Of a stretch of 20,000 bases of DNA, positions 1-16,817 are shown one piece after another. The stretch lies in the IMG/VR virus record IMGVR_UViG_3300028832_000124; one strand, given 5' to 3'. The position numbers and the translations under genes were made by a program. Below the pieces are notes generated by a model. That model did not search any database, was not told the DNA's origin, and saw only the letters and a list, made by a program, of their open reading frames with translations. This DNA comes from an uncultured virus (IMG/VR IMGVR_UViG_3300028832_000124) (Duplodnaviria > Heunggongvirae > Uroviricota > Caudoviricetes). The stretch's first letter is position 1. The number at the start of each line of letters is the position of its first letter.

Positions 1-654
1 CTTCTTACAGGACTCTTCCAGACGGTTGCAATCCTTGTTAGCTGCCTCAAGGTCCTTATCAGCCAGCTCCTTGGCATGCTGAACGTCCTCTAACTTCTTG
101 GAAAGATTCTTCTCGCAGATAAGGGTCTGACGATGGGCCTCCTTGAGATTCTTCAACTCCTTGGCCAGCTTCTCGTTGCAGCCCTTCACGTCCTCAAGAT
201 GCTCAGCCAACTCCTTTTTCTCCTTGACATGGGTGTTGATAACCTCGTCAAGCATCGAAACCTTGCTCTCCAAGATGCGAATCTGAGAGAGAGTAGGACG
301 GACGCGCTTCTTTACCACCTTGAACGGCATTGCCTCGCCATTATAGCGGTTTACGGTGTAGTTTTCTGTATCTTCCGGGGTATATTCTTCGCCAGCCTTA
401 ACGGTACACGTCTTGGCATCGTACTTGAGGCCGTTGGCCTCTAACACTTGGAAGAAACGCTTCTTCTCACGCTTGGTAGCATGACGCGCATAGCGCATAT
501 CGGTGCCAGCAGGGCAATCGGACTCACAATAGGGAGCAAGAGCCTTATAACACACATCACTACCAGTATAACACTCGCCAGTAAATACACGGACATTGCC
601 CAGACCACTGACAATCACATCACCACGCTTAAAAATTCTGTCTTTCGAAATCAT
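1..654 (-). CDS. Hypothetical protein with C-terminal coiled coil (partial, runs off the left edge; not in the ORF track)
   Basis: Manual translation from ATG at 654: MISKDRIFKRGDVIVSGLGNVRVFTG...LAKELKNLKEAHRQ...LEESCKK, open for 218 codons. ATGA overlap with the stop of 651..881. Confidence 0.8.
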   Translation of the reverse strand, partial: MISKDRIFKRGDVIVSGLGNVRVFTGECYTGSDVCYKALAPYCESDCPAGTDMRYARHATKREKKRFFQVLEANGLKYDAKTCTVKAGEEYTPEDTENYTVNRYNGEAMPFKVVKKRVRPTLSQIRILESKVSMLDEVINTHVKEKKELAEHLEDVKGCNEKLAKELKNLKEAHRQTLICEKNLSKKLEDVQHAKELADKDLEAANKDCNRLEESCKK

Positions 655-881
655 AATTCTGCTTTCCAAATCATGTTCATCACTTCTTCGTAACTCTCCA
701 CTACTTCAAGGCAGTGGCCACTATAGAATATTTCAGTATGCGCAGGCTTCACCGCACCATACTCGCCCTTCTCTTCCTTATACGACTCTACGCTCTCTAT
801 ACAATCGGAACGTATAGCGCACACGCACCCGTCAATGAGAGCATGGACCTCGATAAACTCCTTATTCAGCTCGCCCATCAC
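651..881 (-). CDS. Small hypothetical protein (weak FlbD-like pattern)
   Basis: 76-aa ORF with ATGA overlaps on both sides; 'FIEV...IESVE...VVESYEEVMNMI' pattern. Confidence 0.7.
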   Translation of the reverse strand: MMGELNKEFIEVHALIDGCVCAIRSDCIESVESYKEEKGEYGAVKPAHTEIFYSGHCLEVVESYEEVMNMIWKAEL

Positions 882-1108
882 AGCACTTCGTCTTTGTCAA
901 CGGTCAATAGCGTAGGCTGGAAAGGCTGGCCAAACGTCAGCGTAGCCAACCATATCTTACCTTCCTTCATCACCTGCTGTTTCTCTTCATCAGACAACTC
1001 CCAGCAAGTAACCACCTTATCACCGATAACGGCAGCAGGCAACGGCATGTACTCAGGCTGATTCTCGCCCAAAGTAACATTCACTTCGTCAAACTTCAAC
1101 GGCTTCAT
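878..1108 (-). CDS. Conserved phage-type hypothetical protein
   Basis: 76 aa; NQPEYMPLPA...VVTCWELSDEE...IWL..LTFGQPFQP resembles a recurring small phage protein; ATGA-coupled to its neighbours. Confidence 0.75.
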   Translation of the reverse strand: MKPLKFDEVNVTLGENQPEYMPLPAAVIGDKVVTCWELSDEEKQQVMKEGKIWLATLTFGQPFQPTLLTVDKDEVL

Positions 1109-1869
1109 GACTTCTCGGATAAAAGTTCAATGGCACGCTCCAGAGCTTCATCGACAACGCTATCACGCAGACAACGCTCGAACTTACGGCCCTTCTTCAC
1201 CTTCTCACGCTCGGCACGATACGACTGCAGCAGCTTCACACATCTGTCTTTCGACATCTTGCCCTCACCATCAGCAGGAACCAGACGGTCTGTACGATGT
1301 ACGTTATCCATCCGTGCAAACTCACGAATCTTACTCAGCGTCTTTTCGCTGGGCTGGAAATCAATGTGACTACGAATCATATCCTTCTCGTTCGGACCCA
1401 AAGGACGTTTCGCCAAGTCAATACCGATATAGTATCTGAGTGGACGGGTATTCTCCCACTTCTTCAATACATCGGCAAACTCAGCGGCAACATCAATGCT
1501 CTTCTTCTCGCATGGGCCACAACCACACTCAAGAAAGCTACGAATCCAAGAATCTGGATCAGGATTGAAAGTAGGAATGACACGCTTGACAAATTCGTCA
1601 AACTTCACATCTAAGTGCTCTTTCTCACTTTGAATCTGGCTCTCCAAAGCAGTCAACTTCAACACAACATCAGAGACACCAGCAAAAGTACCATCAGGCA
1701 ACTTCACCTCTACATAGTACTTCGTCTCTTCACCAGTAGTCTCAACACTACCTGTTATCTTGCCTACCAGCTTGTCAGTACCAATCTTAACAGTACCTCC
1801 AGCACCAGCAGACACCAATAACTCAGATGCCTTGAAACGTACTAATTCGCCAGTACCATACTTGGCCAT
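1105..1869 (-). CDS. Hypothetical protein, first gene of the leftward operon
   Basis: 254-aa ORF; stop overlaps the next start (ATGA); candidate promoter upstream. Confidence 0.75.
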   Translation of the reverse strand: MAKYGTGELVRFKASELLVSAGAGGTVKIGTDKLVGKITGSVETTGEETKYYVEVKLPDGTFAGVSDVVLKLTALESQIQSEKEHLDVKFDEFVKRVIPTFNPDPDSWIRSFLECGCGPCEKKSIDVAAEFADVLKKWENTRPLRYYIGIDLAKRPLGPNEKDMIRSHIDFQPSEKTLSKIREFARMDNVHRTDRLVPADGEGKMSKDRCVKLLQSYRAEREKVKKGRKFERCLRDSVVDEALERAIELLSEKS

Positions 1870-1992
1870 TACACAAGTAGATACAGAACAACAAGATAAC
1901 CCATTATGAACGATAAGGACGATTTGAAGGATTTTGCCCGGAACTAAGCCCCTCGCTCTATAATACCTATCTTAAGATAACAGAACCCGATG

Positions 1993-2000
1993 CAAAGATA
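1993..2000 (-). promoter_or_regulatory. Bacteroidetes sigma-A -7 box (TATCTTTG) for the leftward operon
   Basis: + strand caaagata = TATCTTTG(CA) on the - strand, matching TAnnTTTG, about 125 bp upstream of ATG 1869. Confidence 0.6.
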
Positions 2001-2854
2001 CACAAAATCATTCATATCATACATATTTATGCAAAAATACCCGTAAATATTAAGGATTTTTAATGAACGATAATATCTGACACCATATTTTACCCTCATT
2101 TTTATGAACGAAATCGTGACATCATCAAAAATGTCAAAATTTCGGTATCGTACATACACGGAATTGTTAAAAAGCTCCGAAAAAATTGGGAAAAAATATT
2201 TTTGAGGTGACAGGGGCGCAAATCTCGTGCCAAAATAGGGGGTGTAGGGGTATTAAAGACTCTTTAACATTATATCTTAATATTCATTAAAATTAAGTGT
2301 CCTGCCTTTTTGTTAGGCTTATTTAACACTATTTCCGATATTATACCTAATAATATAGGATATTATCTTAACACTTTTTAACTTAATATATTTGGTTTAA
2401 CATATTTTTGCATTTCGCGCCACCTTGTCACTTTGAAAAATCTTGACGCCATTTTGTCACTACACCTTTTCTTGACAATATTTTTGCATACCTATTCATT
2501 ACAATATTGCATATATATTCATGCGCTTGTAACTTACTATATATCAGCACTTTACACGCTTTCACGCTTTTCTGAAATATTGACAAAATCACGCAACGAA
2601 GTAAAGAAGTTTTACACGAAATCCGGCTATCATATTATAGTATATTAACACTATTAACAGATCCCAGGTATTTGTTAACACTCTGACCGGATGCTGCCTG
2701 ATTTGTAAACACTATTTAAGTAATATATTAAAACATTTAACAAATATGCTGCTGTGTGCGGCTACATGTTAAAACGTAACCTATTGAATATCAGCACGTT
2801 ACGCAATATATTTTGTAAAGAAAAAAGACACTTGATAATATCATTTTTTTTTCG

Positions 2855-2862
2855 TAACTTTG
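2855..2862 (+). promoter_or_regulatory. Bacteroidetes sigma-A -7 box (TAACTTTG) for the rightward transcript
   Basis: Matches TAnnTTTG about 85 bp upstream of ATG 2945. Confidence 0.6.
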
Positions 2863-2944
2863 TAGTACAAAAGATGAATATTTATAATTTACTAACCGCC
2901 TACGCTATATGGCACAATAAGTCCGCAGGGCAGCGGCAAAGATT

Positions 2945-3457
2945 ATGAAGAAAGACGAGATTAAGAACGTAGTCGAGAACACGGAGAGCGTAAAGAACGC
3001 AATCGAGAGCGGAAACGAGCTCACGCAGTCCGAAATCCTCAACGCCTACCTGGCAAATCATGCAGTCGAGCACTTTTGCGCTGCACTGAACGAGAACGAA
3101 GACGAAGTGAACGAAGTACTTGCAGCCTGCAAGAAGGAAGAAGGTATCTATTGGCTCTACACTCAGCCCGCAATCGACGGCAAGAAGGCCGACGGCACAC
3201 CACTGCCCACACGCGAAGAGTGGGAGCGCCTGAACACTGAGGCCGTGAGGGTTGACAATCTCGCAGGAAAGCAGTGGTACAAGCGCCCGTTCGTTATCGG
3301 TGACGCTCGCGGTGTCAAGTCAGTCGTTAACGCTTACGACCGCTATCAGTCCGCAATTGACGGAGCCGCCAAGAAGGTAGACAACACGCTCGCCGCTGCT
3401 GCTGCTATCTTAGGCGTTAGCGTTGAGGACTTGAAGGCAATGAAGGGCATCAAGTAA
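2945..3457 (+). CDS. Hypothetical protein, first rightward gene
   Basis: 170-aa ORF between a promoter box and a terminator; C-terminal 'AAAAILGVSVEDLK' helix pair. Confidence 0.8.
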   Translation: MKKDEIKNVVENTESVKNAIESGNELTQSEILNAYLANHAVEHFCAALNENEDEVNEVLAACKKEEGIYWLYTQPAIDGKKADGTPLPTREEWERLNTEAVRVDNLAGKQWYKRPFVIGDARGVKSVVNAYDRYQSAIDGAAKKVDNTLAAAAAILGVSVEDLKAMKGIK

Positions 3458-3478
3458 CGCAGAGCACACCACACCACG

Positions 3479-3517
3479 AAAGACGGGACCGGAAGAAATT
3501 CCGGCCCTATCTTTTTT
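3479..3517 (+). terminator. Rho-independent terminator
   Basis: GGGACCGGAA-gaaa-TTCCGGCCC stem followed by TATCTTTTTT, just after the stop at 3457. Confidence 0.75.
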
Positions 3518-3610
3518 CATGCCAAATCTTTCCGGTAATGCAGCCAGGGGATCTGATTCCCTGATGGTCACAAGCCCACAAATGCAGAGTGACGGAGAAA
3601 CGGGCGAGCC

Positions 3611-3671
3611 GAACGAACAGCCCGAACGAACGAAACGAACGAACGATTTATGAGAACGAACGAACAAACGA
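3611..3671 (+). repeat. Imperfect (GAAC)n tetranucleotide tract
   Basis: gaacgaacagcccgaacgaacgaaacgaacgaacgatttatgagaacgaacgaacaaacga. Confidence 0.8.
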
Positions 3672-3952
3672 TGCAGCCGAGCGATCTGGTTGTCATCAGC
3701 ACGGAAACGTTCAAGGACAGAAAGATTGAGGTTTTCCCCGATTTCTTTGTCTACGATTCCAGGACGAGAGCAGAACTCACCAATGCAGGCAGGATTTATC
3801 TCCGTGCATTATGTGATGACTACATGAACGAGAAAGTAACTGTTGAAGAATTGCTCTGCAATCTCGACACGATTTCCAAGGAATTTCCTTGTGACTCTGA
3901 TTTGGTTTATGACAAGATGTTTTTCGAGTTGACCAAAATGATGGAGAGTTAA
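3650..3952 (+). CDS. Hypothetical protein (true start may be ATG 3671)
   Basis: 100-aa ORF, co-oriented; 3-bp gap to the next ORF. Confidence 0.65.
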   Translation: MRTNEQTMQPSDLVVISTETFKDRKIEVFPDFFVYDSRTRAELTNAGRIYLRALCDDYMNEKVTVEELLCNLDTISKEFPCDSDLVYDKMFFELTKMMES

Positions 3953-3955
3953 ATC

Positions 3956-4318
3956 ATGTACGAACGAGAATATAAGGCGAGCGAGGTTGTCAGACAGCTT
4001 CGCCGCCATCAAGCAAAGCGCAATAATGACGAGCGCAGAGAATTGTGTGACGAGATAGAGAGTACGATTCCCTGTCAGCCCCGACTGATAGAGTTCAAGA
4101 GTACGATAACAGTACGAACGGAGCACGAATCAGAGACATTCCGCGCCAAGTATCTGCGAACGAGTACGCATTTCCCCGGAATAGTGCCAGAGCTGGTGAG
4201 CGAGGACGGGCAGGAGTACATGCTGATAACGTGGCTGACCTACGGAAGTCTGCTGAGATTACTCACGGAAGTACGACGAGGTGAACGGATAAAGAACTAC
4301 CGTTTCTTCGTATCATAA
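3956..4318 (+). CDS. Hypothetical protein
   Basis: 120-aa ORF; contains four AGTACGA copies in two reading frames. Confidence 0.6.
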   Translation: MYEREYKASEVVRQLRRHQAKRNNDERRELCDEIESTIPCQPRLIEFKSTITVRTEHESETFRAKYLRTSTHFPGIVPELVSEDGQEYMLITWLTYGSLLRLLTEVRRGERIKNYRFFVS

Positions 4319-4319
4319 C

Positions 4320-5090
4320 ACAGAGCAGTGAGCGAGTACGATTCTCGCTCATTAATGTGGCCATCCTTCGGGGTGAGAGTTGCAAGCCTCTAACACATAG
4401 CACGGGCAAGGGCCTGTATAAAGACATATCTGCGGAAACCTCCTGAGAACGGAGTACGACATGGATTCGTTGCACGATGAAATGTCGTGGGATATGACAC
4501 TGATGCAGGAAAATGCGGAGAGTTTAGAGCCGCTGCCTGAGCGAACAACGCGACACTCACGCAGTAGGGAGTTGAACCTGCTGAAATGGTCGAATAACGA
4601 GTAGGCCTGGAGCGATCAGATAAAAATCATATTCATTATTACGATTGATTCTCGCAGATGATTGCGAGTACGATATAGAGTTGGCTACCTATCTCGAGTA
4701 CGACTGTAGAAATGCAGTACGATTTATCAGAGGGTAATTCGTGGTGGTTCCCGTCGAAAGGTACGATAACACATTTAATCACTTTAGGATGAATCGGGCC
4801 GTGTGCTCATGGAGTACGATGACCCCACCGCCACAGACGAATTAGATGTTTGTCTGGACGGCAGGGAGAATCTTGCTGCAGAGTACGATGAACGGCTGCA
4901 ATGAAAGATATTACGAGGTGCGAGACCTCAGCATAAAGAATGGCCTGGCATATGACCAAATATGCCATTATCCCTCGGTTGGGGCAACGACGGCCTGCTT
5001 GTCAGGAAAGTCCCAGGTGAACGAAAGACGATAATGAACGAAGAGGGAGAGACTACGGGAGAGAGTGGAATTACCTCCGCTCTCTCTTAC
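4320..5090 (+). ncRNA. Candidate large structured ncRNA or structured leader
   Basis: No convincing ORF. At least 8 hairpins, with cUUCGg and GAAA loops and G-U pairs that work only on the + strand. Seven AGTACGA copies. Confidence 0.45.
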
Positions 5091-5114
5091 TATTTAACCA
5101 ATAAAAGTGCGATT

Positions 5115-5312
5115 ATGAAGAAATTCCTGCAAATCTCGAGAACTATCTTGAGTCTGAGTATTATTACTCTGATTAGTATTGCCATCTGTGCAGTTGTATC
5201 GCTGCTTGTCTTGTACGTTTTCGGCATCAACGATGACACTATCAGATGGTGTGCCAGCATCATGCTTTTTGGCACCATCCTCGTTGCTCTTCTTTTGGGA
5301 GCATTCGATTAA
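5115..5312 (+). CDS. Small membrane protein with two predicted TM helices
   Basis: MKKFLQISRTILSLSIITLISIAICAVVSLLVLYVFG...; start reassigned to ATG 5115 after the motif and A-rich leader. Confidence 0.65.
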   Translation: MKKFLQISRTILSLSIITLISIAICAVVSLLVLYVFGINDDTIRWCASIMLFGTILVALLLGAFD

Positions 5313-5375
5313 CAAAGTCTCACGGATATTTTCGGCAGAAATGTTGAAAATATCGCTCATGTTTCACCAAACAAG

Positions 5376-5663
5376 ATGAATGATATGGATAAGTTAAAGA
5401 AATTGCAGATGGTAGCCAAAGTTCTGAGAGAACACCACGGCTACAAAGGTAACAAGGAGTCAGACCATTCTAATCGGTTTAACTTCAAGTTTGACAAGAG
5501 CGAGGGCATTGCCAGTCCGTGTATCGACGTGTACAATGCAGAGAAAGGAGCAAACCTCTTCTTGTGGCCAGAAATCATAGAGTTGTGTCACGGCTTCGGG
5601 CTGTCGCACTACATACACTATGACAAATATGACCTCGAAGAGGTGGTGCTGCACATCTACTAA
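5376..5663 (+). CDS. Hypothetical protein
   Basis: 95-aa ORF bracketed by two hairpin motifs. Confidence 0.75.
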   Translation: MNDMDKLKKLQMVAKVLREHHGYKGNKESDHSNRFNFKFDKSEGIASPCIDVYNAEKGANLFLWPEIIELCHGFGLSHYIHYDKYDLEEVVLHIY

Positions 5664-5714
5664 GTCTCACGGCTCCATCAGGAGCCACTATTATTCACCA
5701 AATAACGAACGAGT

Positions 5715-5978
5715 ATGAAACAGAAAGTAATCAAAACGACTGCAATCTTCCGTTGCATCGTAACATTCAAGGATGGTGCACACAAAATCATCCGCATGAC
5801 CATTGACAAGGTAGCGCATTTCGTGTATCTTTTCAGACAGCAGGAGAGAAATATCTTCGTGGATGAAACATGTCTCTTCGAGATGTGCGAAAACGAATGG
5901 TTATGTATGTCATCAGTTGCCGGTGCCAAATTCATCAATGACCGCACCGACCAGGAATTTCTCAGTATCAGTCTTTAA
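5715..5978 (+). CDS. Hypothetical protein
   Basis: 87-aa ORF bracketed by hairpin motifs. Confidence 0.75.
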   Translation: MKQKVIKTTAIFRCIVTFKDGAHKIIRMTIDKVAHFVYLFRQQERNIFVDETCLFEMCENEWLCMSSVAGAKFINDRTDQEFLSISL

Positions 5979-6030
5979 AGGGTGGGTACATTTTGTACCC
6001 CTCCCACAACAAACCAATAATTATTGAACG

Positions 6031-6198
6031 ATGGTAGTAAACAAGATTCTCCGCAATAAGTGCGGTTTTTGGTATGTGGGCCGTCTTCTGACTGTTGATC
6101 CCGATGGTGTTCCCGTCTATCAGAAGTTGTCAGATGATTACGTCTACAAAGGATGGGCATTGAACTTTGCCCGTCGTATGTGTATCAAGCTATCGTAG
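6031..6198 (+). CDS. Small hypothetical protein, 55 aa (not in the ORF track)
   Basis: MVVNKILRNKCGFWYVGRLLTVDPDGVPVYQKLSDDYVYKGWALNFARRMCIKLS*; fills the gap between two motifs, and its TAG overlaps the GCCT motif. Confidence 0.65.
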   Translation: MVVNKILRNKCGFWYVGRLLTVDPDGVPVYQKLSDDYVYKGWALNFARRMCIKLS

Positions 6199-6271
6199 CC
6201 TTTTTGGCATGGGTGGGTTTTATTTCGTTCGTTCGCCTGCCTGTGCTGCTATTCACCAATACTATACGAAT

Positions 6272-6730
6272 ATGTTACCATCAGAATTTTATGACAGGAC
6301 GCATATCAAGCTCTCAGGAGATGAATATGCAGACGTAGAGAACATCTACAACAATGTGGAGATGCAAAAGGATGACTTCTGCCAGCATTGGGTTGAAGAA
6401 AAGGAAAATCCGTTGTTCAAGGAGTTAGCCAAAGCATTCTGCAAGCAGACGAAAGAGCTGCTGCAGGCTCAGAGTGACCTCGGCACCATCGAGCACAAAT
6501 ACAAGAGCGAGATTGAGGCCATCAAAAAGGAGAATGAGCGCATCCTTGCTGACAAGGAAGAGGCTCACAAATCTCTGGGTCGTAAGATTATTGAGAATAT
6601 CGACGACGAAGTACGATTGCACGATATTCTTGAGGAAGAGTTCACGATAGACTTTATCATCAAGGTCAAGCTGTATAATGACATGGAGCTTGAGCGAAGT
6701 GAGCGAGACTATCTAATCGGAAAGCTTTAG
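6272..6730 (+). CDS. Hypothetical protein with central coiled coil
   Basis: Start reassigned to ATG 6272 (MLPSEFYDRT...) downstream of the motif; in frame with track ORF 6167..6730. Confidence 0.75.
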   Translation: MLPSEFYDRTHIKLSGDEYADVENIYNNVEMQKDDFCQHWVEEKENPLFKELAKAFCKQTKELLQAQSDLGTIEHKYKSEIEAIKKENERILADKEEAHKSLGRKIIENIDDEVRLHDILEEEFTIDFIIKVKLYNDMELERSERDYLIGKL

Positions 6731-6778
6731 TCTTTAGGAGCCATGAACGGCTCCACTATTCACCAAAAATGTAAGAAT

Positions 6779-7015
6779 ATGGAAAAACTATTGAGAAATC
6801 AGCTTCATCTTGTCGGCTCTGCTGGCACGTTGGAGAATCTTTGTGAGTTCGCTAAGCAGCGTCTTTATTGGGCGCAGCTCGAAACCTCTGAGAGTACACG
6901 CTACGAGTCCCGTATGGGTAAGGTGTACGATGTGAGTAATCGTAACGGCCTCGTTCCTAACATGGTAATCATTCAGAGCAAGGTACGCTGTTCTCTCTAT
7001 CGGATAAAAGAGTGA
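6779..7015 (+). CDS. Hypothetical protein
   Basis: Start reassigned to ATG 6779 (MEKLLRNQ...), because the upstream ATG 6743 lies in the hairpin loop. Confidence 0.7.
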   Translation: MEKLLRNQLHLVGSAGTLENLCEFAKQRLYWAQLETSESTRYESRMGKVYDVSNRNGLVPNMVIIQSKVRCSLYRIKE

Positions 7016-7018
7016 GTC

Positions 7019-7195
7019 ATGAGCAAGTATCATCAGGAAAAGGATCGTGCGCGTCAGATAGCAAAGGACTGGCAGCAGGAAGAATCTCAAATCTCCCTGT
7101 CATGGGAAGGTGTGATGATTGCCGCTGCCTACCTGCAACGACTTGCGCGACGCTACGGACTCATTCGTGAGTTTCGTGAGAATGCCATCATCTAA
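7019..7195 (+). CDS. Small conserved-looking hypothetical protein, 58 aa (not in the ORF track)
   Basis: MSKYHQEKDRARQIAKDWQQEESQISLSWEGVMIAAAYLQRLARRYGLIREFRENAII*; the RYGL.REFREN ending resembles a recurring gut mobile-element protein. Confidence 0.7.
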   Translation: MSKYHQEKDRARQIAKDWQQEESQISLSWEGVMIAAAYLQRLARRYGLIREFRENAII

Positions 7196-7206
7196 ATGCT
7201 ACAGCT

Positions 7207-7365
7207 ATGCCAAAGGGTAAAGTAAGGTGGCTCACGTTCACTGACAATCCCCGTTGGGGCAGATATTTCATCGGTGAGAGTGAGTCCAGACAGGAAGCCA
7301 TCGACAAAGGTAAGGCAGCAAACAAAGGCAGATTCGTAGTTGAACGGAGAGTAAAGTTCAAGTAG
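7207..7365 (+). CDS. Small basic hypothetical protein, 52 aa (not in the ORF track)
   Basis: MPKGKVRWLTFTDNPRWGRYFIGESESRQEAIDKGKAANKGRFVVERRVKFK*; TAG overlaps the GTCT motif. Confidence 0.65.
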   Translation: MPKGKVRWLTFTDNPRWGRYFIGESESRQEAIDKGKAANKGRFVVERRVKFK

Positions 7366-7417
7366 TCTTTTGCGGCTCTTGCATGGGCCGCACAATTATT
7401 CACCAAATCTTAAGAGT

Positions 7418-7666
7418 ATGATAGAAGTAAAGAAGACCACCTATTTGGTGGACGGCATTCAAGAGCCTTGCTACGAGGTTTCTGACGGCTACGCTATGGT
7501 GCGAATTGCCAAGTGTTACCACATGGTAGGACGTGACACGCTCTATTTGACAGAGTATCTTGATGGAGAGTGGAACGGCTCAGACGAATGGGATGGAGAT
7601 TTCGATGCTCTGCACGATTTCGACGCGAAACGCCTGGCCAAACAATTCTCAGTTTATCTGAACTAA
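7418..7666 (+). CDS. Acidic hypothetical protein
   Basis: Start at ATG 7418 (MIEVKKTTYLVDG...); D/E-rich C-terminal half. Confidence 0.7.
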   Translation: MIEVKKTTYLVDGIQEPCYEVSDGYAMVRIAKCYHMVGRDTLYLTEYLDGEWNGSDEWDGDFDALHDFDAKRLAKQFSVYLN

Positions 7667-7679
7667 TCTCTGATGCGCT

Positions 7680-7850
7680 ATGGTAAAGTACAAAGGTTAT
7701 TCCATTTGGAACGAGCCAACGACGTTTGGCCGTCCTAACTGGCATGTTGGCACAGTCCAAAATGACGGGAAAATGTTGGTCCATGCCTCCGGCTATGGCA
7801 GTTGTCTGTCTGCTAAGCGTGCTGCTGATGCACATTTTGGCAGGCTGTAG
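7680..7850 (+). CDS. Small hypothetical protein, 56 aa (not in the ORF track)
   Basis: MVKYKGYSIWNEPTTFGRPNWHVGTVQNDGKMLVHASGYGSCLSAKRAADAHFGRL*; TAG overlaps the GTCT motif. Confidence 0.65.
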   Translation: MVKYKGYSIWNEPTTFGRPNWHVGTVQNDGKMLVHASGYGSCLSAKRAADAHFGRL

Positions 7851-7895
7851 TCTTTCGCTCCTTCGGGAGCACTATTCACCATATTTATTCAGCTT

Positions 7896-8249
7896 ATGAT
7901 TATCACAGACGAAACAAAGCAAAGATTCCTGCGGATGCTCAATGAGCGTCAGATTATTGTCATCCAATGTGACCACGGAAAGTCTCACAAGACCTACGAT
8001 TTCAAGTTCATTGGTGCCAATAGTGAAGGAAAGTGGGATTTCACTCCCATGATGGTAGAAATGAGCAGATACCCATCCAACAAGAGCACAAACGTAAAAT
8101 ACCTGTCAGTCCGTGCTCTGGATGCTGTGTCTGTCATCTGCGAGGTTATTGAGAAGATGAAGGAAGAGGGTATCTTGAACTTCGAGTACGCTTTCGGTTA
8201 CGAATTGTATCAGATAGTACGAGATAAAATCTGCACCTTCTATGTCTGA
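7896..8249 (+). CDS. Hypothetical protein
   Basis: 117-aa ORF bracketed by motifs. Confidence 0.75.
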   Translation: MIITDETKQRFLRMLNERQIIVIQCDHGKSHKTYDFKFIGANSEGKWDFTPMMVEMSRYPSNKSTNVKYLSVRALDAVSVICEVIEKMKEEGILNFEYAFGYELYQIVRDKICTFYV

Positions 8250-8295
8250 GTCTCTTGGGGCCGAACGGCCCACTATAAACCAAACGTTATGAATT

Positions 8296-8625
8296 ATGAA
8301 AGCATTGTGTATCTCAACTTGTCATCTGATTGCTAACGGACATGGCTCTATCTTTGAGCCAGTACGCGAAATCAGCGGTAAGAAGTTCTATTGCAAAGGA
8401 GATTTCTCCATTGCAAAATCTTGTGAGAGGGCTTATGTGGTTCTTTGGAAGAATGTGATTGTTGGGGAGTTTGTTGGAGCGAACAAAGAGCTTGTTGACT
8501 TACTACACTCCAAGACTGCACCGGACTCAAAGAAGGTCATGCAGAGTTACAACTACAGGACCGCATTGGCTGATATTGAGGAAGCTCAGAAATGGGCAGA
8601 ACGTTACAATTTCAAAATTTGCTAA
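8296..8625 (+). CDS. Hypothetical protein
   Basis: 109-aa ORF bracketed by motifs. Confidence 0.75.
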   Translation: MKALCISTCHLIANGHGSIFEPVREISGKKFYCKGDFSIAKSCERAYVVLWKNVIVGEFVGANKELVDLLHSKTAPDSKKVMQSYNYRTALADIEEAQKWAERYNFKIC

Positions 8626-8683
8626 ACGTCTCTTGTGTGGCTATAATGTAGCCACAGCTATTAACCCCTAAACTTATAGGAAT

Positions 8684-9019
8684 ATGGAAAATAATGCAGT
8701 AAAGAATGATGCTCTACGCATCCATGAAGTGACAGGCCGACCAATGGCTGAATGTGAAGAGCAGGCACAGCAGATTGCTGATTGTGTACGCGAAATGTGC
8801 AATCGAGTGGTTGAGTTCTTTTATCTCAAGAAGGATGGCACCACACGCCAAGCATTCGGTACGCTCCAGCAGGAAGTTGTGATTGCTCATGTGACAGCTG
8901 ACTCCATGAGAGAGCCAAAGCCTGACCTCGTAACGTATTTCGACACTGAGGCGCAGGCATGGCGTTCCTTCAAGAAAGTCAACTTCAAGAGCTTTGTAAA
9001 GATGGAGCCACAAGCATGA
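8684..9019 (+). CDS. WYL_2/DUF2693-like Sm/SH3 beta-barrel protein
   Basis: VVEFFYLKKDGTTRQAFGTL...LVTYFDTEAQAWRSFKKVN is the characteristic signature of this family. Confidence 0.75.
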   Translation: MENNAVKNDALRIHEVTGRPMAECEEQAQQIADCVREMCNRVVEFFYLKKDGTTRQAFGTLQQEVVIAHVTADSMREPKPDLVTYFDTEAQAWRSFKKVNFKSFVKMEPQA

Positions 9020-9153
9020 CGAATATCGCGAAATATGCTTGGTGTCTCTTCCTTGCAGCCCTGACGTTTGGCATCTGGACGTTCCCAATCCTAATCGTCT
9101 TGGTCCTCGTCAATCTCTATCTTATCAAAAAGCATCCCGAATGGTACAAATGA
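9016..9153 (+). CDS. Small hydrophobic membrane peptide, 45 aa
   Basis: MTNIAKYAWCLFLAALTFGIWTFPILIVLVLVNLYLIKKHPEWYK; ATGA overlap with the previous gene; followed by a motif. Confidence 0.6.
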   Translation: MTNIAKYAWCLFLAALTFGIWTFPILIVLVLVNLYLIKKHPEWYK

Positions 9154-9212
9154 AGTCTCAAGCCGTGCAAAGGACACGGCACCATTTATTAACCCCTAAA
9201 ATGTAGTGAATT

Positions 9213-10127
9213 ATGAAAAAAGAAAAGAACATTTGCGTAGAAGAAGTTGCCAAAGTTCCTGTTGTTAAGTACTACTTTTACAGGAAAGACACGAATGGCT
9301 ATCTGAAAACGGATGGTGGGCTTGTTTATGTGACTGTCTCTGCTATCAGCATTGACTTCAAGAAACAGCTCTTAGTAACGACGCTCACAGACAAGAGCGG
9401 CAAGGAGTATCTGAAAGAAGGTAAATTCTCTCTTTATGCAAGTCCAGAGGCGTACGAAGCTGACGATCCAATGAGAATGATTGTGTATCAGACGTGGGAA
9501 CTTCTTAAGTTTGCCGATTGGGGCCGACTGACTGATTGCGCTGTTGGTATTGTTGACGAGGAAGAAGGCAAGCAATCCTGTTATATCAAGGTATGGATAT
9601 TCGAGGATGGTGGTGCAAAAGAAATTCCCGTTGTCATCAACTCCATTGCCTGCGACACGTACGAGAAATGGCACTTGACCGACGGCAACATTCCTGTGAA
9701 GATGTGGGAAACCAGAGCTGACGCATACGCCTTCAACGAATATCAGATTACTGATAGTGACGGCGAGGTGTTCACTGAGGAAGGATTTCAGAAAAGACTT
9801 GGCCTGACCCCTGCACAATGGGTTATCCTCAAGCAGATGAAGGTACTCTTCGACAAAGCAACGGATGCAGGCATCAAGTTCATTTGGGACCGAGAGTATG
9901 CCGGAAACATCAAGGCTGTGAATCTTCTGAACGTCCACGACTACGGCTACGACCAACAGGCATTCCAAGGTGGTGACAACATTCAGTTCAAGCAGGTTGT
10001 TTTCGCTGACACTGGCATCAACTTCTACGATTACAACTCCGACGATGCTGACAGGGAAACGTTCGCCCTCAATCCAACAGCACGTCAGCAAAAGGAATGG
10101 CTCAAAGCCACTCAAGGTAACGAGTAG
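9213..10127 (+). CDS. Hypothetical protein
   Basis: 304-aa ORF bracketed by motifs; no family recognised. Confidence 0.8.
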   Translation: MKKEKNICVEEVAKVPVVKYYFYRKDTNGYLKTDGGLVYVTVSAISIDFKKQLLVTTLTDKSGKEYLKEGKFSLYASPEAYEADDPMRMIVYQTWELLKFADWGRLTDCAVGIVDEEEGKQSCYIKVWIFEDGGAKEIPVVINSIACDTYEKWHLTDGNIPVKMWETRADAYAFNEYQITDSDGEVFTEEGFQKRLGLTPAQWVILKQMKVLFDKATDAGIKFIWDREYAGNIKAVNLLNVHDYGYDQQAFQGGDNIQFKQVVFADTGINFYDYNSDDADRETFALNPTARQQKEWLKATQGNE

Positions 10128-10177
10128 TCTTTCTCCCTGCTTGCATGCAGGGAACAACAAACCAACTACACAAGATT

Positions 10178-10696
10178 ATGGCAAAGTTAAACGTCTATTC
10201 ATTTGCCGACTATAACTCTGTCCGTTTCCTCGCCCATCAAGTGAAGGATGGTAATGACAGTAGTATCAGTCGTGCAGCTCGTTACATGGCGCATCTTGTG
10301 TCGTGTATCGCTGACGAGCGATGTGTTATCATTCCTGTGCCTGGTCGTACAGGTGTCGCTCTCTACACAAAGGTTCTTGCCGAGCGTATCTCTGAGCTAA
10401 CGGGTGTACGTGTCGTGGACTGCCTAAAGTGCAAGCCACACATGACTCAGTATCTCCGCAAGATACGCTATGGACTTGACAGCATGCGTCCGATGGATTT
10501 CTCCATCACTCAGGACATTCCCTCAGACGTTATCCCTATTCTCATTGATAACGTTCTTGACACGGGAACTACTATTGTGTCAGCCATGCAGGCATTAAAC
10601 CGAACACTCTACGCTGTTGTGCTGGGCAATACGCACAACTTCCAGCATTTCAATTATCCTATCAACCTCTACGAACAGTCTCTTGCTCTCCAGTAA
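10178..10696 (+). CDS. Type I phosphoribosyltransferase-fold protein (ComF-like)
   Basis: IIPVPG and the PRPP-binding loop ILIDNVLDTGTTIVSA; start reassigned to ATG 10178. Confidence 0.75.
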   Translation: MAKLNVYSFADYNSVRFLAHQVKDGNDSSISRAARYMAHLVSCIADERCVIIPVPGRTGVALYTKVLAERISELTGVRVVDCLKCKPHMTQYLRKIRYGLDSMRPMDFSITQDIPSDVIPILIDNVLDTGTTIVSAMQALNRTLYAVVLGNTHNFQHFNYPINLYEQSLALQ

Positions 10697-10734
10697 TATG
10701 GAGAGTGCTATTAACCCATAAAATTATCAAGAAT

Positions 10735-11061
10735 ATGACAAAGATTACCTACAATGAGCAAGAACTTCGCCTTGTGCAGTCTCGCTATCAGAACAACAAT
10801 GCGCTCTACGTTGGACTCGTTGACAATGATGGAGAGTTTTATGCAGATGTGACGGTCAACATGCCCATCAGCAGCACTATGCCGACTGACTGCGCTTTCG
10901 TTGACACAAACAATCTCTCTTGGAAAATCATCGAAGTGTTGACGGATGCAGGTGTTGTGACACCTATCCATCAGACATGCAGAAGTGGTTTCTATCAGTA
11001 TCATGCTTTCCGCTTTCAGAATCTCTGGGATATTGATGACATCACAGCAGCGATCAACTAA
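10735..11061 (+). CDS. DUF4313-like protein
   Basis: YQNNNALYVGL...YADVTVN...AFVDTNN...SGFYQY pattern; start at ATG 10735. Confidence 0.65.
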   Translation: MTKITYNEQELRLVQSRYQNNNALYVGLVDNDGEFYADVTVNMPISSTMPTDCAFVDTNNLSWKIIEVLTDAGVVTPIHQTCRSGFYQYHAFRFQNLWDIDDITAAIN

Positions 11062-11263
11062 GTACGAAGCCGTCTGCGAGTCAGGGAATACGGATGCTGA
11101 CACCATCATGAAGTTTCCTGACCGTGAATCAGCAGAAATGTTCTGTCAGATTTGGCGTGCCTCGCATCCTGGCACCCATGCTTGGGTACGAGAGACACAG
11201 CACCGCCACATGGAGCACAACACGCTTGGCAGTTCCGTAATGACGGTAGACCTCTACGATTAG
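11036..11263 (+). CDS. Small hypothetical protein (start uncertain)
   Basis: In frame with track ORF 10985..11263; TAG overlaps a degenerate GCCT motif. Confidence 0.5.
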   Translation: MTSQQRSTKYEAVCESGNTDADTIMKFPDRESAEMFCQIWRASHPGTHAWVRETQHRHMEHNTLGSSVMTVDLYD

Positions 11264-11324
11264 CCTCAGTGTGCAGCGTGATTTTTGTCACGCTGTTCCC
11301 AATAACCCCTAAATACATCAGAAT

Positions 11325-11861
11325 ATGAATGAATACAAACCAATCTTCACCTGCTATGAAGAAATCAAGCAGCGTGAAATCAGAGAATTGAAGGATGCGG
11401 TACGAGCAGCGAGAGGGCAGTATGTCTTCCAAAAGGATAAGCATCCGTATGTGATGTGCAACCTCGACTCTGGCCCGTGTGACCTACGTGTTGACAGCGT
11501 AGAGATACAGAACATTTCAGATGTAGATGTACTGGTCATCTTTGGCTACGACGAGCAGGCAGGGCAGGCGGTTGAAATCTCTCTTGAGGATATTGCTTAC
11601 AGCCATATCTCGTTTATCACTGAGGCTATTCCTGTCCGCAAGTTCACACAATCTTCATTCTCTATCTCTCGCCTCAGCCGTGAGGACCTCGAAGAGAAAG
11701 GCTTCGACACGTCAGACGTGGATGACAAGACGATGGAAAAACTGGCTTCTAAGCTGGGTGATGACTATTGCGAACAGCTCTTTTGGGAATCTCTTGAAAT
11801 CATTGCCGAATCTATGGGTATTCCTCGCAAAGAGGACTACGAAGAGGATGATGACGAATAG
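11325..11861 (+). CDS. Acidic hypothetical protein
   Basis: 178 aa; C-terminal SREDLEEKGFD...LASKLGDDYCEQLFWESL segment and acidic tail. Confidence 0.8.
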   Translation: MNEYKPIFTCYEEIKQREIRELKDAVRAARGQYVFQKDKHPYVMCNLDSGPCDLRVDSVEIQNISDVDVLVIFGYDEQAGQAVEISLEDIAYSHISFITEAIPVRKFTQSSFSISRLSREDLEEKGFDTSDVDDKTMEKLASKLGDDYCEQLFWESLEIIAESMGIPRKEDYEEDDDE

Positions 11862-11863
11862 CT

Positions 11864-12073
11864 ATGTCCACCATCCGCTTGCAGCTCATTAAGGGCTTCT
11901 TCTATCCGACGGATGCAGACAGCCGTAAGATTCTCGAAGAGAGTGTGCGACTTGACCGCATCCCACTTGAACGAATAGACGTGGTATCTCCCAAACTTGT
12001 GAAAGCTGGTCATGCTCTGGCTATCACAGGCTGGGACCCACCGCCTGTTCCCGTGCGCTTTTCGTCTCTTTAG
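11864..12073 (+). CDS. Small hypothetical protein
   Basis: 69-aa ORF starting 2 bp after the previous stop and ending inside a motif. Confidence 0.6.
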   Translation: MSTIRLQLIKGFFYPTDADSRKILEESVRLDRIPLERIDVVSPKLVKAGHALAITGWDPPPVPVRFSSL

Positions 12074-12123
12074 CCGTAAGAAATTTACGGCACTACTTAA
12101 CCCCTTAAAAGAAAGGATTGAAT

Positions 12124-13035
12124 ATGAGTCAAAACAATGTTTATCAGATGGTAACTGACCGCATCGTGGCACAGCTGGAGCAGGGTCTTATCCCTTGGCA
12201 TAAGCCGTGGACGGGCGTAGGTATTGAAGATGGTGGAGCTGTCAACTATGTCAGCCGAAAACCCTACAGCATGCTGAATCAGATGCTTCTTGGACGCGAG
12301 GGAGAATATCTCACCTTCAAGCAGATCAAGGAGCGTGGAGGTAGTATCAAGAAGGGAGCAAAAGCTGGTGTCGTTGTATTCTTCACCACTACGACCTACA
12401 CCAAGCGCGAGGAAGTGCAGGAAGATGGCTCTACTGAGACTGTCAGTGTCATGAAAGAACACCTCATGCCTGTACTCAAGTACTACAACGTCTTTCACAT
12501 AGACGATTGTGAGGGTATCGAGAGTAAGATTAAGGTTGAAGAGGATGCTGGACCGAAGATTTCTACCATCGAGTCAGCCGAGAAGGTTCTGAACGGCTAC
12601 GTCGAACGAGAGAAAGAACTGCAGTTCCGCAACAATATACCGACTGACCGGGCCTACTATTCTCCGACGCTCGACCTTATCTCAGTTCCTATGCTCTCTC
12701 AGTACGAGATTGCGGAAGAGTATTACTCGACCACGTTCCACGAAGCGATTCACTCTACCATGCCAGAGAATCGTTGCAACCGCAAATCTGAGCAGAAACT
12801 TGCTGCCTTTGGTAGCGAGGATTATTCTCGCGAGGAACTTGTGGCCGAGATTGGCTCTGCCATGCTCTGCAACAATGTTGGCATCGACTGCGAGAAAGCT
12901 TTCAAGAACTCTGTAGCCTATATCCAGGGATGGCTTAAGAAGCTCAAGAACGACAACCGAATGATTGTCTGGGCTGCATCCCGTGCTGAGAAGGCTGCAA
13001 AGTACATTCTTGGTGAGCCAATCACTACTGAGTAG
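12124..13035 (+). CDS. ardC: ArdC-family antirestriction/ssDNA-binding protein with zincin-like metallopeptidase domain
   Basis: N-terminal VYQMVTDRIVAQLEQGLIPWHKPW; YYSTTFHEAIHST (HExxH) and YSREELVAEIGSA. Confidence 0.9.
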   Translation: MSQNNVYQMVTDRIVAQLEQGLIPWHKPWTGVGIEDGGAVNYVSRKPYSMLNQMLLGREGEYLTFKQIKERGGSIKKGAKAGVVVFFTTTTYTKREEVQEDGSTETVSVMKEHLMPVLKYYNVFHIDDCEGIESKIKVEEDAGPKISTIESAEKVLNGYVEREKELQFRNNIPTDRAYYSPTLDLISVPMLSQYEIAEEYYSTTFHEAIHSTMPENRCNRKSEQKLAAFGSEDYSREELVAEIGSAMLCNNVGIDCEKAFKNSVAYIQGWLKKLKNDNRMIVWAASRAEKAAKYILGEPITTE

Positions 13036-13091
13036 TCTATCTTTCCCAATGTGTAAGGCATTGGGAACTATAAACCAAACAATATCAGAAT

Positions 13092-13790
13092 ATGGAAAGA
13101 ACATTTTTACCCGTAAACTGTTGGGCAGCGGAAGATATTCCGTCCAACAAACTGATTGAGGGCAACCCTCAGAACATGAGTAATGCGGAATTGCTCTCTA
13201 TCATCATTGGCACTGGCTCCGATAAGGAGAATAGTGTAGAACTTGCACGTCGCATCCTTCTGACCTGTGACAACAAGCTTTCAGAACTGGCTAAGAAGTG
13301 CAACAATCCCAACAATCTCACCTACATGCGTGGCGTGGGCAAGCAGAAAACGGCTAAGATTATAGCAGCTCTCGAGCTTGGCAAGCGTCGCCAGCATGAG
13401 CAGGCCACCGAACGGCCCGAACTCAAAACGGCAGTACGAGTCTATAACATGATGGCTCCTATCATGCAGGATTTGGAAAAGGAAGAGTTTTGGGTGCTTC
13501 TCATGGGGCAGCACTTCAAGCTGATAAAGAAGTTCCGGCTGTCACAGGGTGGTATCTCTGAGGTGTCCGTGGATATTCGCATCATCATGAAGGAAGCGGT
13601 TCTGAATAACGCCACCGTCTTGGCTGTCTGTCATAACCATCCCTCTGGCTCACTGAGTCCGAGCAAATGTGATGACGATATAACGTTCAGCCTCAAGAAA
13701 GCCTGTGACGTTATGCGCATCTATCTCAGCGATCATGTCATCATAACTGATGGCGCATACTACAGCTATCGCGAGCAGGGAAGAATCTGA
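13092..13790 (+). CDS. radC: RadC-family JAB/MPN domain protein
   Basis: ELLSIIIGTG, HhH-like GVGKQK, EEFWVLL, JAB motif HNHPSG...S..D, DHVII. Confidence 0.9.
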   Translation: MERTFLPVNCWAAEDIPSNKLIEGNPQNMSNAELLSIIIGTGSDKENSVELARRILLTCDNKLSELAKKCNNPNNLTYMRGVGKQKTAKIIAALELGKRRQHEQATERPELKTAVRVYNMMAPIMQDLEKEEFWVLLMGQHFKLIKKFRLSQGGISEVSVDIRIIMKEAVLNNATVLAVCHNHPSGSLSPSKCDDDITFSLKKACDVMRIYLSDHVIITDGAYYSYREQGRI

Positions 13791-13810
13791 CCAACAAATG
13801 ACCAACAATT

Positions 13811-14026
13811 ATGTTATACACCGACGTTCAAGCTCAGGAACTCGTAGGGCAGGTTCTCGAATCTCTCAACGAGGATGGCCGTTATCCTCTCCATGAGGGA
13901 GATATGGGCTACTACAAGAATGCCAATGGAATCTGGACGGCTTGGGATAATTCTACAGGCGACTGCTGGGTAGAGGATTTCAAGACCCGAAAGGAGGCCA
14001 TTGAATGGTTAGGAAATGTTAATTAG
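13811..14026 (+). CDS. Small conserved phage-type hypothetical protein
   Basis: 71 aa; WTAWDNSTGDCWVEDFKTRKEAIEWL; TAG overlaps the last GTCT motif. Confidence 0.7.
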   Translation: MLYTDVQAQELVGQVLESLNEDGRYPLHEGDMGYYKNANGIWTAWDNSTGDCWVEDFKTRKEAIEWLGNVN

Positions 14027-14062
14027 TCTTTTTATCCTGCATGACATTTGCCGTGCAGGATG

Positions 14063-14190
14063 CAACTCACACAGCAACTCACACACTGATTCACACAGTA
14101 ATTCACACACTTAACGCATTGTGTATCAGATAGTTAATGTAAAACCTCACACACCAATTCACACAGCGATTCACACACCAACTCACACAA
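14063..14190 (+). repeat. Eight 12-bp direct repeats (core TCACACA) in two blocks of four
   Basis: CAACTCACACAG CAACTCACACAC TGATTCACACAG TAATTCACACAC, 32-bp spacer, AACCTCACACAC CAATTCACACAG CGATTCACACAC CAACTCACACAA. Confidence 0.9.
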
Positions 14191-14351
14191 TCGCGCGTGT
14201 GTATATAAAGGTACGTGCGCGTTTATAGTTATTATATAAATATATATATTCTACCAGTATATATATAACTGTGCAAAAATGGCTTTTTGTCTCTGATGTT
14301 AAAAATTCAGAAAACATCCTATATTATAAACCAAATTATTAATTTTGCAAT

Positions 14352-15299: not shown

Positions 15300-15346
15300 T
15301 TTCCTGCATTTCTTTCCTATTTGCGGTGTAGGAAACAATTTATTTT
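15299..15346. terminator. Probable terminator between the convergent recombinase genes
   Basis: GTTTCCTGCAT...GTGTAGGAAAC stem (with G-U pairs) followed by a T-rich tract. Confidence 0.45.
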
Positions 15347-15358
15347 CCTATTTCGGTC

Positions 15359-16591: not shown

Positions 16592-16593
16592 AC

Positions 16594-16745
16594 TATTCTG
16601 AGTTTAATTGGTTTGCTACACTATTTGCTGCACCAAATTAACCCTCAAAAGCCTGCAAAAGCCGCGATTTCTCTTAATCGTTTGGAGATTTACCTCAACT
16701 CAGAATAATTATCAAAAAGCCTAATTTGCTGATTATCAGCATTGA
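16594..16745. other. Putative att junction: arm-type repeats and palindrome next to the tRNA 3' end
   Basis: Direct repeats TTTGCTACAC (16612) and TTTGCTGCAC (16624); inverted repeat TATTCTGAGTT (16594) / AACTCAGAATA (16697); palindrome TGCTGAT-T-ATCAGCA (16727-16741). Confidence 0.6.
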
Positions 16746-16817
16746 GCGGAATACGGGACTCGAACCCGCGACCCTCGGCTTGGGAAGCCAATGCTCTACC
16801 AACTGAGCTAATTCCGC
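16745..16817 (-). tRNA. tRNA-Gly (anticodon CCC)
   Basis: GCGGAAT acceptor stem, D arm GCTC-AGTTGGTA-GAGC, anticodon loop TTCCCAA, T loop TTCGAGT; CCA not encoded. Confidence 0.97.

Follow-up and report, generated by a model that had tools for sequence, protein, structure and literature searches.

Sponge RNAs of the CsrB/RsmZ type present the short word GGA to their partner CsrA. In T4-type phages, the PeSL cassettes are described by Arbiol et al. (2010; PMC2839356) as combining a strong sigma-70-like promoter with a terminator. The STAXI and radC RNA motifs, as presented by Weinberg et al. (2010; PMC2864571), were assigned to Enterobacteriales and Proteobacteria, and their authors debated whether they represent RNA or single-stranded DNA (PMC2864571). 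Here we analyzed a 20,000-nucleotide stretch of DNA from an uncultured virus of the Caudoviricetes (IMG/VR record IMGVR_UViG_3300028832_000124; the whole stretch is hereafter called the window), which contains a dense, one-strand array of the heptamer AGTACGA. No description of this word or of the array was found in Rfam or in the literature searched, where AGTACGA occurs mostly in primer strings (among the papers listed) and AGUACGA mostly in work on the sarcin-ricin loop or s2m.

The locus resembles the PeSL cassettes as Arbiol et al. portray them, in that short repeated stem-loop signals punctuate regions of small non-essential genes and modules are swapped (PMC2839356). It differs in that promoter boxes of the Bacteroidota type are absent from the copies and their surroundings, and its hairpins are followed by the word rather than by a T run. 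We consider it about an even bet (probability roughly 0.5) that AGUACGA is an RNA-level signal read by one trans-acting factor, for which the array serves as a multivalent platform.

A strand-specific heptamer array in a phage operon

Eleven exact copies of AGTACGA lie within 828 bp of the window (4061–4888), at positions 4061, 4100, 4111, 4270, 4335, 4453, 4667, 4697, 4716, 4813, and 4882, all on the + strand. A word search reproduced this set as listed in a preliminary description of the sequence, along with five scattered + strand copies at 6610, 8216, 11061, 12701, and 13433 (6610–13439), which fall mostly within open reading frames (ORFs) in the rest of the operon; two − strand copies at 419 and 16513 had been overlooked. 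The window total is 18 copies (16 on the + strand and 2 on the − strand). In 200 dinucleotide-preserving shuffles of the window, the mean count was 1.83 and the maximum 6, and none reached 18. The four one-mismatch variants listed before (3957, 4122, 4163, and 4760) were recovered by a one-mismatch search, which added three more on the + strand (4638, 4910, and 5106). Exact copies outnumber one-mismatch copies by 11 to 7 between 3950 and 5120, though there are 21 one-mismatch words for every exact word. The flanks of the 11 copies hold no longer common repeat, and the fixed part is the seven letters alone.

The copies in ORF 3956–4318 use two different frames (frame 0 for 4061 and 4100, frame 2 for 4111 and 4270), as had been stated, and others stand in non-coding sequence; both facts uphold the earlier proposal that selection acts at the nucleotide level. 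All copies between 2400 and 14300 are co-oriented with the genes. A similar density throughout the genome, which would have undercut the proposed protein-binding array, was not found in G001, a 75.6-kb circular viral record that matches window positions 138–16786 at 72–98% identity: the ~63 kb outside its operon contain one copy on the + strand and five on the − strand. Its part homologous to the scattered-copy region contains seven. These observations support an array that is strictly strand-specific and co-oriented with transcription.

Conservation of the array in related phages

The homologous stretch contains 11 copies in the window, G001, L140, L141, and L152, 17 in L153, and 8 in L150, and G001 has one further copy at the next gene start, beyond its 11. 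Loss of the heptamer in homologs, the other outcome that would have told against the proposed protein-binding array, was likewise not seen, as the word is kept in close and more distant homologs. L140 and L141 are ~80% identical to the window. L150, L152, and L153 were found via alignment of the neighboring helicase-type protein; they bear their copies on the operon strand in homologous non-coding sequence. Copies within the ORF are gained and lost between relatives, each of which keeps three or four, and in L153 (original coordinates 2359–2545) a ~94-nt unit with four words is duplicated in tandem, giving the 17 copies. The word stays exact while its positions turn over, a pattern that, on these alignments, would fit selection for how many exact words are present more than for where they lie.

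BLAST searches of 3500–6500 against public phage records, in near and distant modes, gave no match. Protein-led scans of viral contigs with ORF 4962–5312 and ORF 3650–3952 returned G001 and one spurious 14-residue match only, and an exact 32-mer scan returned G001 only. A pattern scan of viral contigs for three copies separated by short gaps gave more than 119 stretches. Among the matches listed, most are tandem or in-frame coding repeats, and only L041, L059, L013, and L056 resemble the window in being irregular, one-strand arrays.

Further candidates were set aside. The iteron-like L087/L133 holds the word in both orientations, and G006/L133 has no D5-like helicase. An association of the word with ArdC was rejected, as loci from an ArdC-led scan of genomes (Prevotella, Alistipes, and Acutalibacteraceae) contain 0 or 1 copy per strand, and the enriched CTACGAG in L135 is Tyr-Glu coding. 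Within L133 (6150–6400; G006), GTACGAG-type words in both orientations occupy the interval that separates a gene for an AAA_25/DnaB-like helicase from a primase-like gene with DUF6371 and a zinc ribbon. The two genes belong to an integrative element, and the interval looks like a replication origin with iterons that share the word by chance.

Ribozymes and a two-gene cassette

Copy 4335 does lie in a hairpin loop, as first described, and the hairpin proved to be a stem of a Twister-P5 ribozyme at 4319–4391 on the + strand (in a narrow Rfam search, 38.7 bits where the gathering score is 37.6, with E = 3.5e-07). Homologs score above the gathering score in all three of the more distant relatives scanned (L150, L152, and L153; 43.0–45.3 bits). 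The hairpin loop is the 7-nt UACGAUU. In six of seven lineages the word occupies this loop while the stem sequence varies: the stems differ by lineage (GAGCGAG, CAUGCAG, CACGGAG, and CAGGCAG) and AG-UACGA is constant. The exception is L150, which has a GCAA loop with the word immediately upstream. The cut is predicted at 4353/4354, at a conserved UA step; twister ribozymes presumably cleave inside UAA.

A probable twister ribozyme of the type P1 model lies upstream at 3532–3595 (+ strand), between ORF 2945–3457 and ORF 3650–3952. It scores 53.4 bits (E = 1.8e-10), under the twister-P1 gathering score of 67.2 in Rfam; within the Twister clan (CL00120), 4319–4391 passes the gathering score of its model and 3532–3595 falls below. 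Homologous twister-P1 matches occur in L152 (53.6 bits) and L141 (50.0 bits), and the same upstream position in L153 and L150 gives weak, sub-threshold hammerhead-type matches (28.8 and 29.3 bits) rather than twister-P1.

Between the two ribozymes is a two-gene cassette (3650–4318, + strand) made up of ORFs 3650–3952 and 3956–4318, neither of which matches a Pfam or PHROG family. ORF 3956–4318 carries four exact copies (4061, 4100, 4111, and 4270). Compared with G001, its mismatches at the first, second, and third codon positions number 18, 25, and 41 of 120 each, with the frame intact, and by this pattern it is a real, fast-evolving gene. The cassette has no nucleotide homolog in L150, L152, and L153, although the flanks are homologous. 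In this lineage, two ribozymes bracket a small gene cassette whose content varies between clades while the flanks remain homologous.

Hairpins and covariation in the non-coding stretch

Seven of the 11 copies lie in 4319–5114, which is non-coding; insertions of 46 and 31 nt in G001 break the sole small ORF there (4461–4604). The part 3' of the predicted cut (4354–5114, + strand) holds six exact copies (4453, 4667, 4697, 4716, 4813, and 4882) and the near copies at 4638, 4760, 4910, and 5106. The non-coding stretch differs from G001 at 26 of 640 positions, compared with 84 of 360 in the preceding ORF. Its best conserved part is a core unit at 4640–4790 (+ strand), comprising copies 4667, 4697, and 4716 and the variant GGTACGA at 4760, with small hairpins between them and a copy spacing that is fixed in all relatives.

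We aligned the core unit across eight rows from two clades. RNAalifold predicted small hairpins between the copies, with eight pairs showing changes on both sides; two of these hairpins have GNRA-type tetraloops (e.g., CUGUA-GAAA-UGCAG in the window and CUUGA-GCAA-UCAAG in L152). In the core-unit structure, 98.2% of cells are paired, compared with 89.1% in shuffles (0 of 500 reached the observed value) and 26–50% when partners were slid. Pairs involving the word never vary and are uninformative. Of the hairpins that the preliminary description had placed directly 5' of copies, those at 4667 and 4716 are borne out by compensatory changes, and the one at 4813 is invariant among relatives.

A further hairpin at 5045–5100 (+ strand) lies just past the ends of RNA-library contigs at 5049–5052. 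No ribozyme match was found near the 3' end at 5049, and hairpin 5045–5100 was traced only by a chance-level match to a microRNA model. The next gene (5115–5312, + strand) encodes a 65-aa hydrophobic protein; its probable start is taken from the ATTATGA context, and the translation is open. G001 has an exact AGTACGA two bases before the corresponding ATG, where the window reads AGTGCGA.

Gene-junction hairpins and the helicase lineage

In four more distant loci (L129, L130, L131, and L158; GC content 38–41%), the word ends a uniform hairpin of 27–30 nt that begins 2–4 nt past a stop codon. In these junction modules, the word is followed by an A/T-rich leader of 17–29 nt and then by an ATTATGA-type start. 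Of 28 strong modules, 22 have a stem-plus-loop span of 27 nt and 4 have one of 28 nt; 24 are closed by a C-G pair, and in 23 an A stands immediately 5' of the hairpin. In a set of 30 modules selected by Watson-Crick pairs alone, we counted 275 Watson-Crick, 40 G.T, and 9 A.C pairs. Because G.T pairs outnumber A.C pairs by 40 to 9, the junction hairpins fold on the word's strand only, either as RNA or as that single DNA strand. In L129, L130, and L131 taken together, the operon strand carries 48 copies and the opposite strand 1, and each of the four operons opens with a dense, hairpin-poor word cluster like the window array.

The junction modules share with the window the invariant heptamer, the coding strand, the accessory operon, and the placement of the word at the 3' foot of hairpins. 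In contrast, the window and its 75-kb relative have a dense array with short hairpins only, set in a ribozyme-bordered non-coding stretch, and most gene junctions of the window prophage do not use the word. Between the dense cluster and the first junction hairpin, L129 (4960–5060) and L130 (reverse complement 2530–2610) have in common a ~70–90 nt element (GGTTTTTAGTTATT ... CCGTGAGGNCTATTACTTTC) that has no Rfam match.

A homolog of one D5-like helicase lies 3–8 kb from the array and is divergently oriented in nine of nine informative loci (G001, L150, L152, L153, G003, L158, G002, G004, and G005); six other loci from the helicase search hold less than 3.8 kb on that side and cannot tell. The protein is of the SF3 helicase type, with D5_N and DUF5906 domains and a weak Pox_D5 match. 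The word remains exact while the helicase diverges to ~30% protein identity. The 105-kb G003 is not crAss-like and has the same set of PHROG families as G001. By these sequence comparisons, the array and junction phages belong to a single lineage, made up of temperate siphovirus-type phages of Prevotella-type Bacteroidales from the rumen and gut.

RNA-library contigs

The RNA evidence consists of contigs assembled from an RNA library of one sheep-gut sample. Contigs of this kind do not reveal strand, level, or where transcripts truly end, and the libraries may also contain DNA; contig depth cannot rank parts of the operon, and uncovered parts are no evidence of absence. The contigs cover 2984–3533, 4571–5052, 4622–5049, and other parts. 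A 783-nt contig, whose left end falls at ~4318–4364 by arithmetic on its pieces, ends at 5052 with loose letters that we take to be Illumina adapter, and in another run of that sample a contig stops at 5049. We read these contigs as weakly hinting at transcription of the stretch and at a discrete end near 5050. Beside the 3532–3595 ribozyme, one contig ends at 3533 and another begins at 3554, which is likewise a weak hint of cleavage.

Phage setting and accessory operon

Homology to G001 stops at 16786, inside a tRNA-Gly(ccc) gene at 16744–16817. By tRNA scan and this homology limit, the attachment end of the prophage lies inside that gene. An integrase gene (15359–16591, − strand; PHROGs) sits beside the attachment site, the two together spanning 15359–16817 on the − strand. 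G001 encodes tape measure, major head, terminase, portal, anti-repressor, RecT-like, and exonuclease proteins, and it also carries replication proteins and a "primase" family protein. On account of this gene content and of the integrase beside the attachment site, we read the window as the right arm of a temperate prophage of the siphovirus type, which is integrated at tRNA-Gly. The host is a member of the Bacteroidales, probably Prevotella: TAnnTTTG boxes cluster at 2197–2862 on the + strand, the sequence is present in sequencing runs of sheep and bovine gut samples, and the closest genomic homolog of the ArdC-like gene, at 68% identity, is in an uncultured Prevotella genome. A tRNA-Thr(cgt) gene comes after tRNA-Gly(ccc) (region 16744–16988); by reasoning alone, UACGA would be complementary to positions 33–37 of a CGU anticodon loop.

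Nearly all genes from ~2.4 to 15.3 kb are on the + strand. A promoter zone at 2197–2862 (+ strand) contains TAnnTTTG boxes at 2197, 2387, 2403, 2479, and 2855 by regular-expression scan; we take TAnnTTTG to be the consensus of the Bacteroidota promoter literature. The same scan found no + strand box between 2863 and 8348, the next being at 8349, so that none lies in or beside the array. Nor does a TAnnTTTG box of the kind that a PeSL-like promoter would call for occur on the − strand at any of the 11 copies, flanks included.

By Pfam and PHROGs, the distal operon encodes an ArdC-N plus zincin-like peptidase protein (12118–13035), a RadC-like protein (13092–13790), and a second tyrosine recombinase (14352–15299), all on the + strand. 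The recombinase has homologs in L130 and L132 and ends the accessory operon in the window, in L130 (reverse complement 16410–17411), and in L132 (reverse complement 14769–16367), at 33–39% identity. In L130 it sits after an FtsK/SpoIIIE-type gene. The accessory operon of G005 also includes a reverse transcriptase gene (RVT_1; L132, reverse complement 12775–14040).

Host background

In a Prevotella genome (G007), AGTACGA occurs 77 times on the forward and 87 times on the reverse strand (164 in 2.6 Mb), compared with 362 for a control word without CG. The one-strand density of the array is several hundred times that of the Prevotella genome. A Chi- or KOPS-like oriented host signal is not supported, given that G007 shows neither over-representation nor skew. 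The main text of a Prevotella intermedia methylome paper lists no GTAC or TACGA motif.

Many occurrences of AAAGTACGA in Prevotella genomes belong to the 13-mer TGCAAAAGTACGA, which is present in 75 of 81 genomes (G007–G088; loci L167–L196) and occurs ~377 times, compared with 2 for a control. On the other strand, TGCAAAAGTACGA reads TCGTACTTTTGCA, a -7 promoter box facing a divergent gene. The triplet TCG before TACTTTTGCA is ~7 times more frequent than the average triplet, with 90 occurrences in 21 genomes where the mean is 13, and TCG before TACTTTTG may mark a promoter subclass in Prevotella. The idea of antisense promoters was dropped, as none of the 11 array copies continues into TCGTACTTTTGCA; this box explains part of the host background, not the array. 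One genome (G060) has 23 forward and 1 reverse copies of the 13-mer, far above the other genomes searched, which could reflect a resident array or prophage. A promoter for a virion RNA polymerase, as in crAss-like phages, was also rejected, since G003, a temperate siphovirus, encodes no polymerase of this kind in any ORF of at least 250 aa.

Discussion

The preliminary description had offered an array of either RNA sites or oriented DNA sites. The RNA option gained from the ribozyme loop, the covariation, and the G.T bias, whereas an oriented DNA translocation signal was weakened by the Prevotella genome, which shows neither skew nor excess; the D5-like helicase gene beside every true case leaves this option some probability. 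We favor an RNA-level reading because the copies are co-oriented with transcription, have no promoters at them, and are placed in a ribozyme loop, and because the hairpins covary, the G.T bias is confined to one strand, and the word holds a fixed place between stop and start codons in relatives. The evidence as a whole points to RNA rather than duplex DNA.

In the model that we propose, host RNA polymerase would start the + strand accessory operon at the boxes around 2.2–2.9 kb, and two twister ribozymes would cut the transcript near 3536 and at 4353/4354. The products would be an upstream part, a ~0.8-kb two-gene message, and an untranslated RNA from 4354. The message would carry four more copies and end in a hairpin with the word in its loop. 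The second cut would free ~0.7 kb of untranslated RNA, from 4354 to ~5050, in which AGUACGA would be strung between small hairpins. In the larger relatives, the word would form the 3' foot of a uniform hairpin after stop codons, 17–29 nt before the next start. One trans-acting factor, most likely a protein from the host or from a core phage gene, would bind or cut at the single-stranded word beside a helix, and the dense array would offer it a high-avidity platform, whether as sponge, loader, or decoy; selection would then keep copy number, not exact places. The analysis shows the array with its strand bias and conservation, its setting beside ribozymes, the covarying hairpins, and folding on one strand; from these we infer the existence and nature of this factor, cleavage by the ribozymes in vivo, and the platform role. 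As for the form the platform might take, a phage-made sponge is possible though doubtful: the twister-cut ~0.7-kb array RNA would titrate a factor that reads AGUACGA punctuation at gene junctions.

Several observations weigh against this model. No reader was found: by blastp and Pfam/PHROGs, the operons of the window and of L129–L131 share only RadC and the tyrosine recombinase, and Pfam and PHROGs gave no word-binding candidate among the operon proteins. An unusually stable hairpin (below the 5th percentile of folding energy) precedes only 1 of the 16 window copies. Ensemble predictions make the copies, if anything, more paired than their surroundings, with an unpaired probability of 0.24 for the words and 0.41 for the rest. 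The covariation comes from two clades and so represents few independent events, and contigs from one sample give neither strand, level, nor true ends and may include DNA. Finally, the helicase is 3–8 kb away in every true case, and a DNA-level reading predicts the same.

Such a reading would make the words DNA sites for the neighboring D5-like SF3 helicase, either as iterons of an origin or "cis replication region" or as single-strand initiation sites consisting of hairpin plus word. The helicase homolog adjoins the array in all nine informative loci, 3–8 kb away and divergent, down to ~30% identity; G.T pairs are also tolerated in DNA hairpins, so one-strand folding alone does not show RNA; and the helicase-primase of satellite phage P4 is said to bind short repeated octamers. 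We nonetheless regard helicase sites as unlikely. Iteron sets usually mix orientations, whereas the strand bias here is complete, and the one mixed set (L133) lacks the helicase. A duplex site would be used in either orientation, yet the counts are 16 to 2 in the window and 48 to 1 in the junction operons, with 40 G.T to 9 A.C pairs. The words also lie within a transcribed operon, in a ribozyme loop, and at a set spacing from start codons; they keep to the accessory operon instead of being spread along a lagging-strand template, and G001 has a separate replication module. Chance, codon usage, or a recent duplication artefact as the origin is already contradicted by the observations: TACGA alone is ~2:1 biased to the coding strand in these loci, owing to Tyr-Asp/Glu codon pairs, and a duplicated unit makes up part of the L153 array, but no shuffle out of 200 reached the observed count, the copies use two reading frames and also occur in non-coding DNA, the flanks of the copies hold no longer common repeat, and the array is kept in six relatives.

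Two other explanations dispense with a dedicated reader. In one, to which we give little weight, the word would build tertiary structure or drive self-association within an RNA-architecture module. Placed beside a helix, UACGA may look like a T-loop or like the strand that bulges in a kink-turn. The GUAC core is self-complementary, the consensus fold joins the GUAC of copy 1 to that of copy 4 and the ACGA of copy 3 to a UCGU further downstream, and the copies are predicted to be more paired than the rest; the junction modules further show A 5' of the hairpin in 23 of 28 and a C-G closing pair in 24 of 28, and the ribozyme loop is the 7-nt UACGAUU. Pairs that involve the word are invariant, however, and say nothing either way, and a G stands two bases 5' of the hairpin in just 4 of the 28 modules, at odds with the tandem G.A of a standard kink-turn. 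Pure structure would also leave unexplained the single copies in ORFs and the turnover of positions with kept copy number. The other explanation, recombination joints, would treat word plus hairpin mainly as microhomology for swaps of accessory genes, an idea put forward for the PeSL cassettes of T4-type phages, with no regulatory reader. It draws on the inter-ribozyme cassette, which has no homolog in L150, L152, and L153 despite homologous flanks, and on the tandem duplication of a four-module unit in L153. We find it improbable: a seven-base match is short for exchange driven by homology, an array this dense has no genes between its copies to be shuffled, and the exactness of the word across helicase divergence to ~30% identity, with 11 exact against 7 near copies, points to sequence-specific reading.

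How Bacteroidota and their phages control gene expression after transcription is poorly understood. An exact seven-letter word that occurs both as a junction mark and as a ribozyme-side array points to a specific reader, for which the array could be used as bait. An RNA-level signal of this kind would give bacterial twister ribozymes a concrete job, namely separating, within one operon transcript, a two-gene message from a non-coding array RNA. Because the operon carries anti-restriction-type genes (ArdC-like and RadC-like), the signal may bear on prophage establishment in gut and rumen Prevotella. Should the sponge exist, it would constitute a global post-transcriptional circuit in Bacteroidota that couples self-cleaving RNA with a multivalent decoy, and anti-defense genes could owe the timing or level of their expression to it.

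Two resemblances to known RNAs concern the word itself. AGUACGA is, as we take it, the start of the universal 23S rRNA sarcin-ricin loop, and GAGUACGAU presumably lies within the s2m element of coronaviruses and astroviruses; 6 of the 11 array copies read GAGTACGAT. Only 7–9 letters are in common, the remainder of either element is absent, and there is no Rfam match, and we judge the resemblance to be a coincidence. The CsrB/RsmZ sponges are closer in organization, being untranslated RNAs with many copies of a short word beside or in hairpins, with the word also found near the starts of targets. They differ from the array in that the word here is AGUACGA, not GGA, no CsrA-like partner is known for it, nor was one found, and release is apparently by a ribozyme rather than from an own promoter. 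Searches with the Rfam models of the STAXI and radC motifs (RF01728 and RF01754) gave no match in the window (E up to 5), in L041, L059, and L013 (E up to 0.1), or in L150, L152, L153, and L141 (E up to 1). In genomic setting, the locus is nonetheless like the STAXI and radC motifs as Weinberg et al. (2010) portray them, with tandem structured motifs lying by anti-restriction, RadC, integrase, and DNA-handling genes (PMC2864571).

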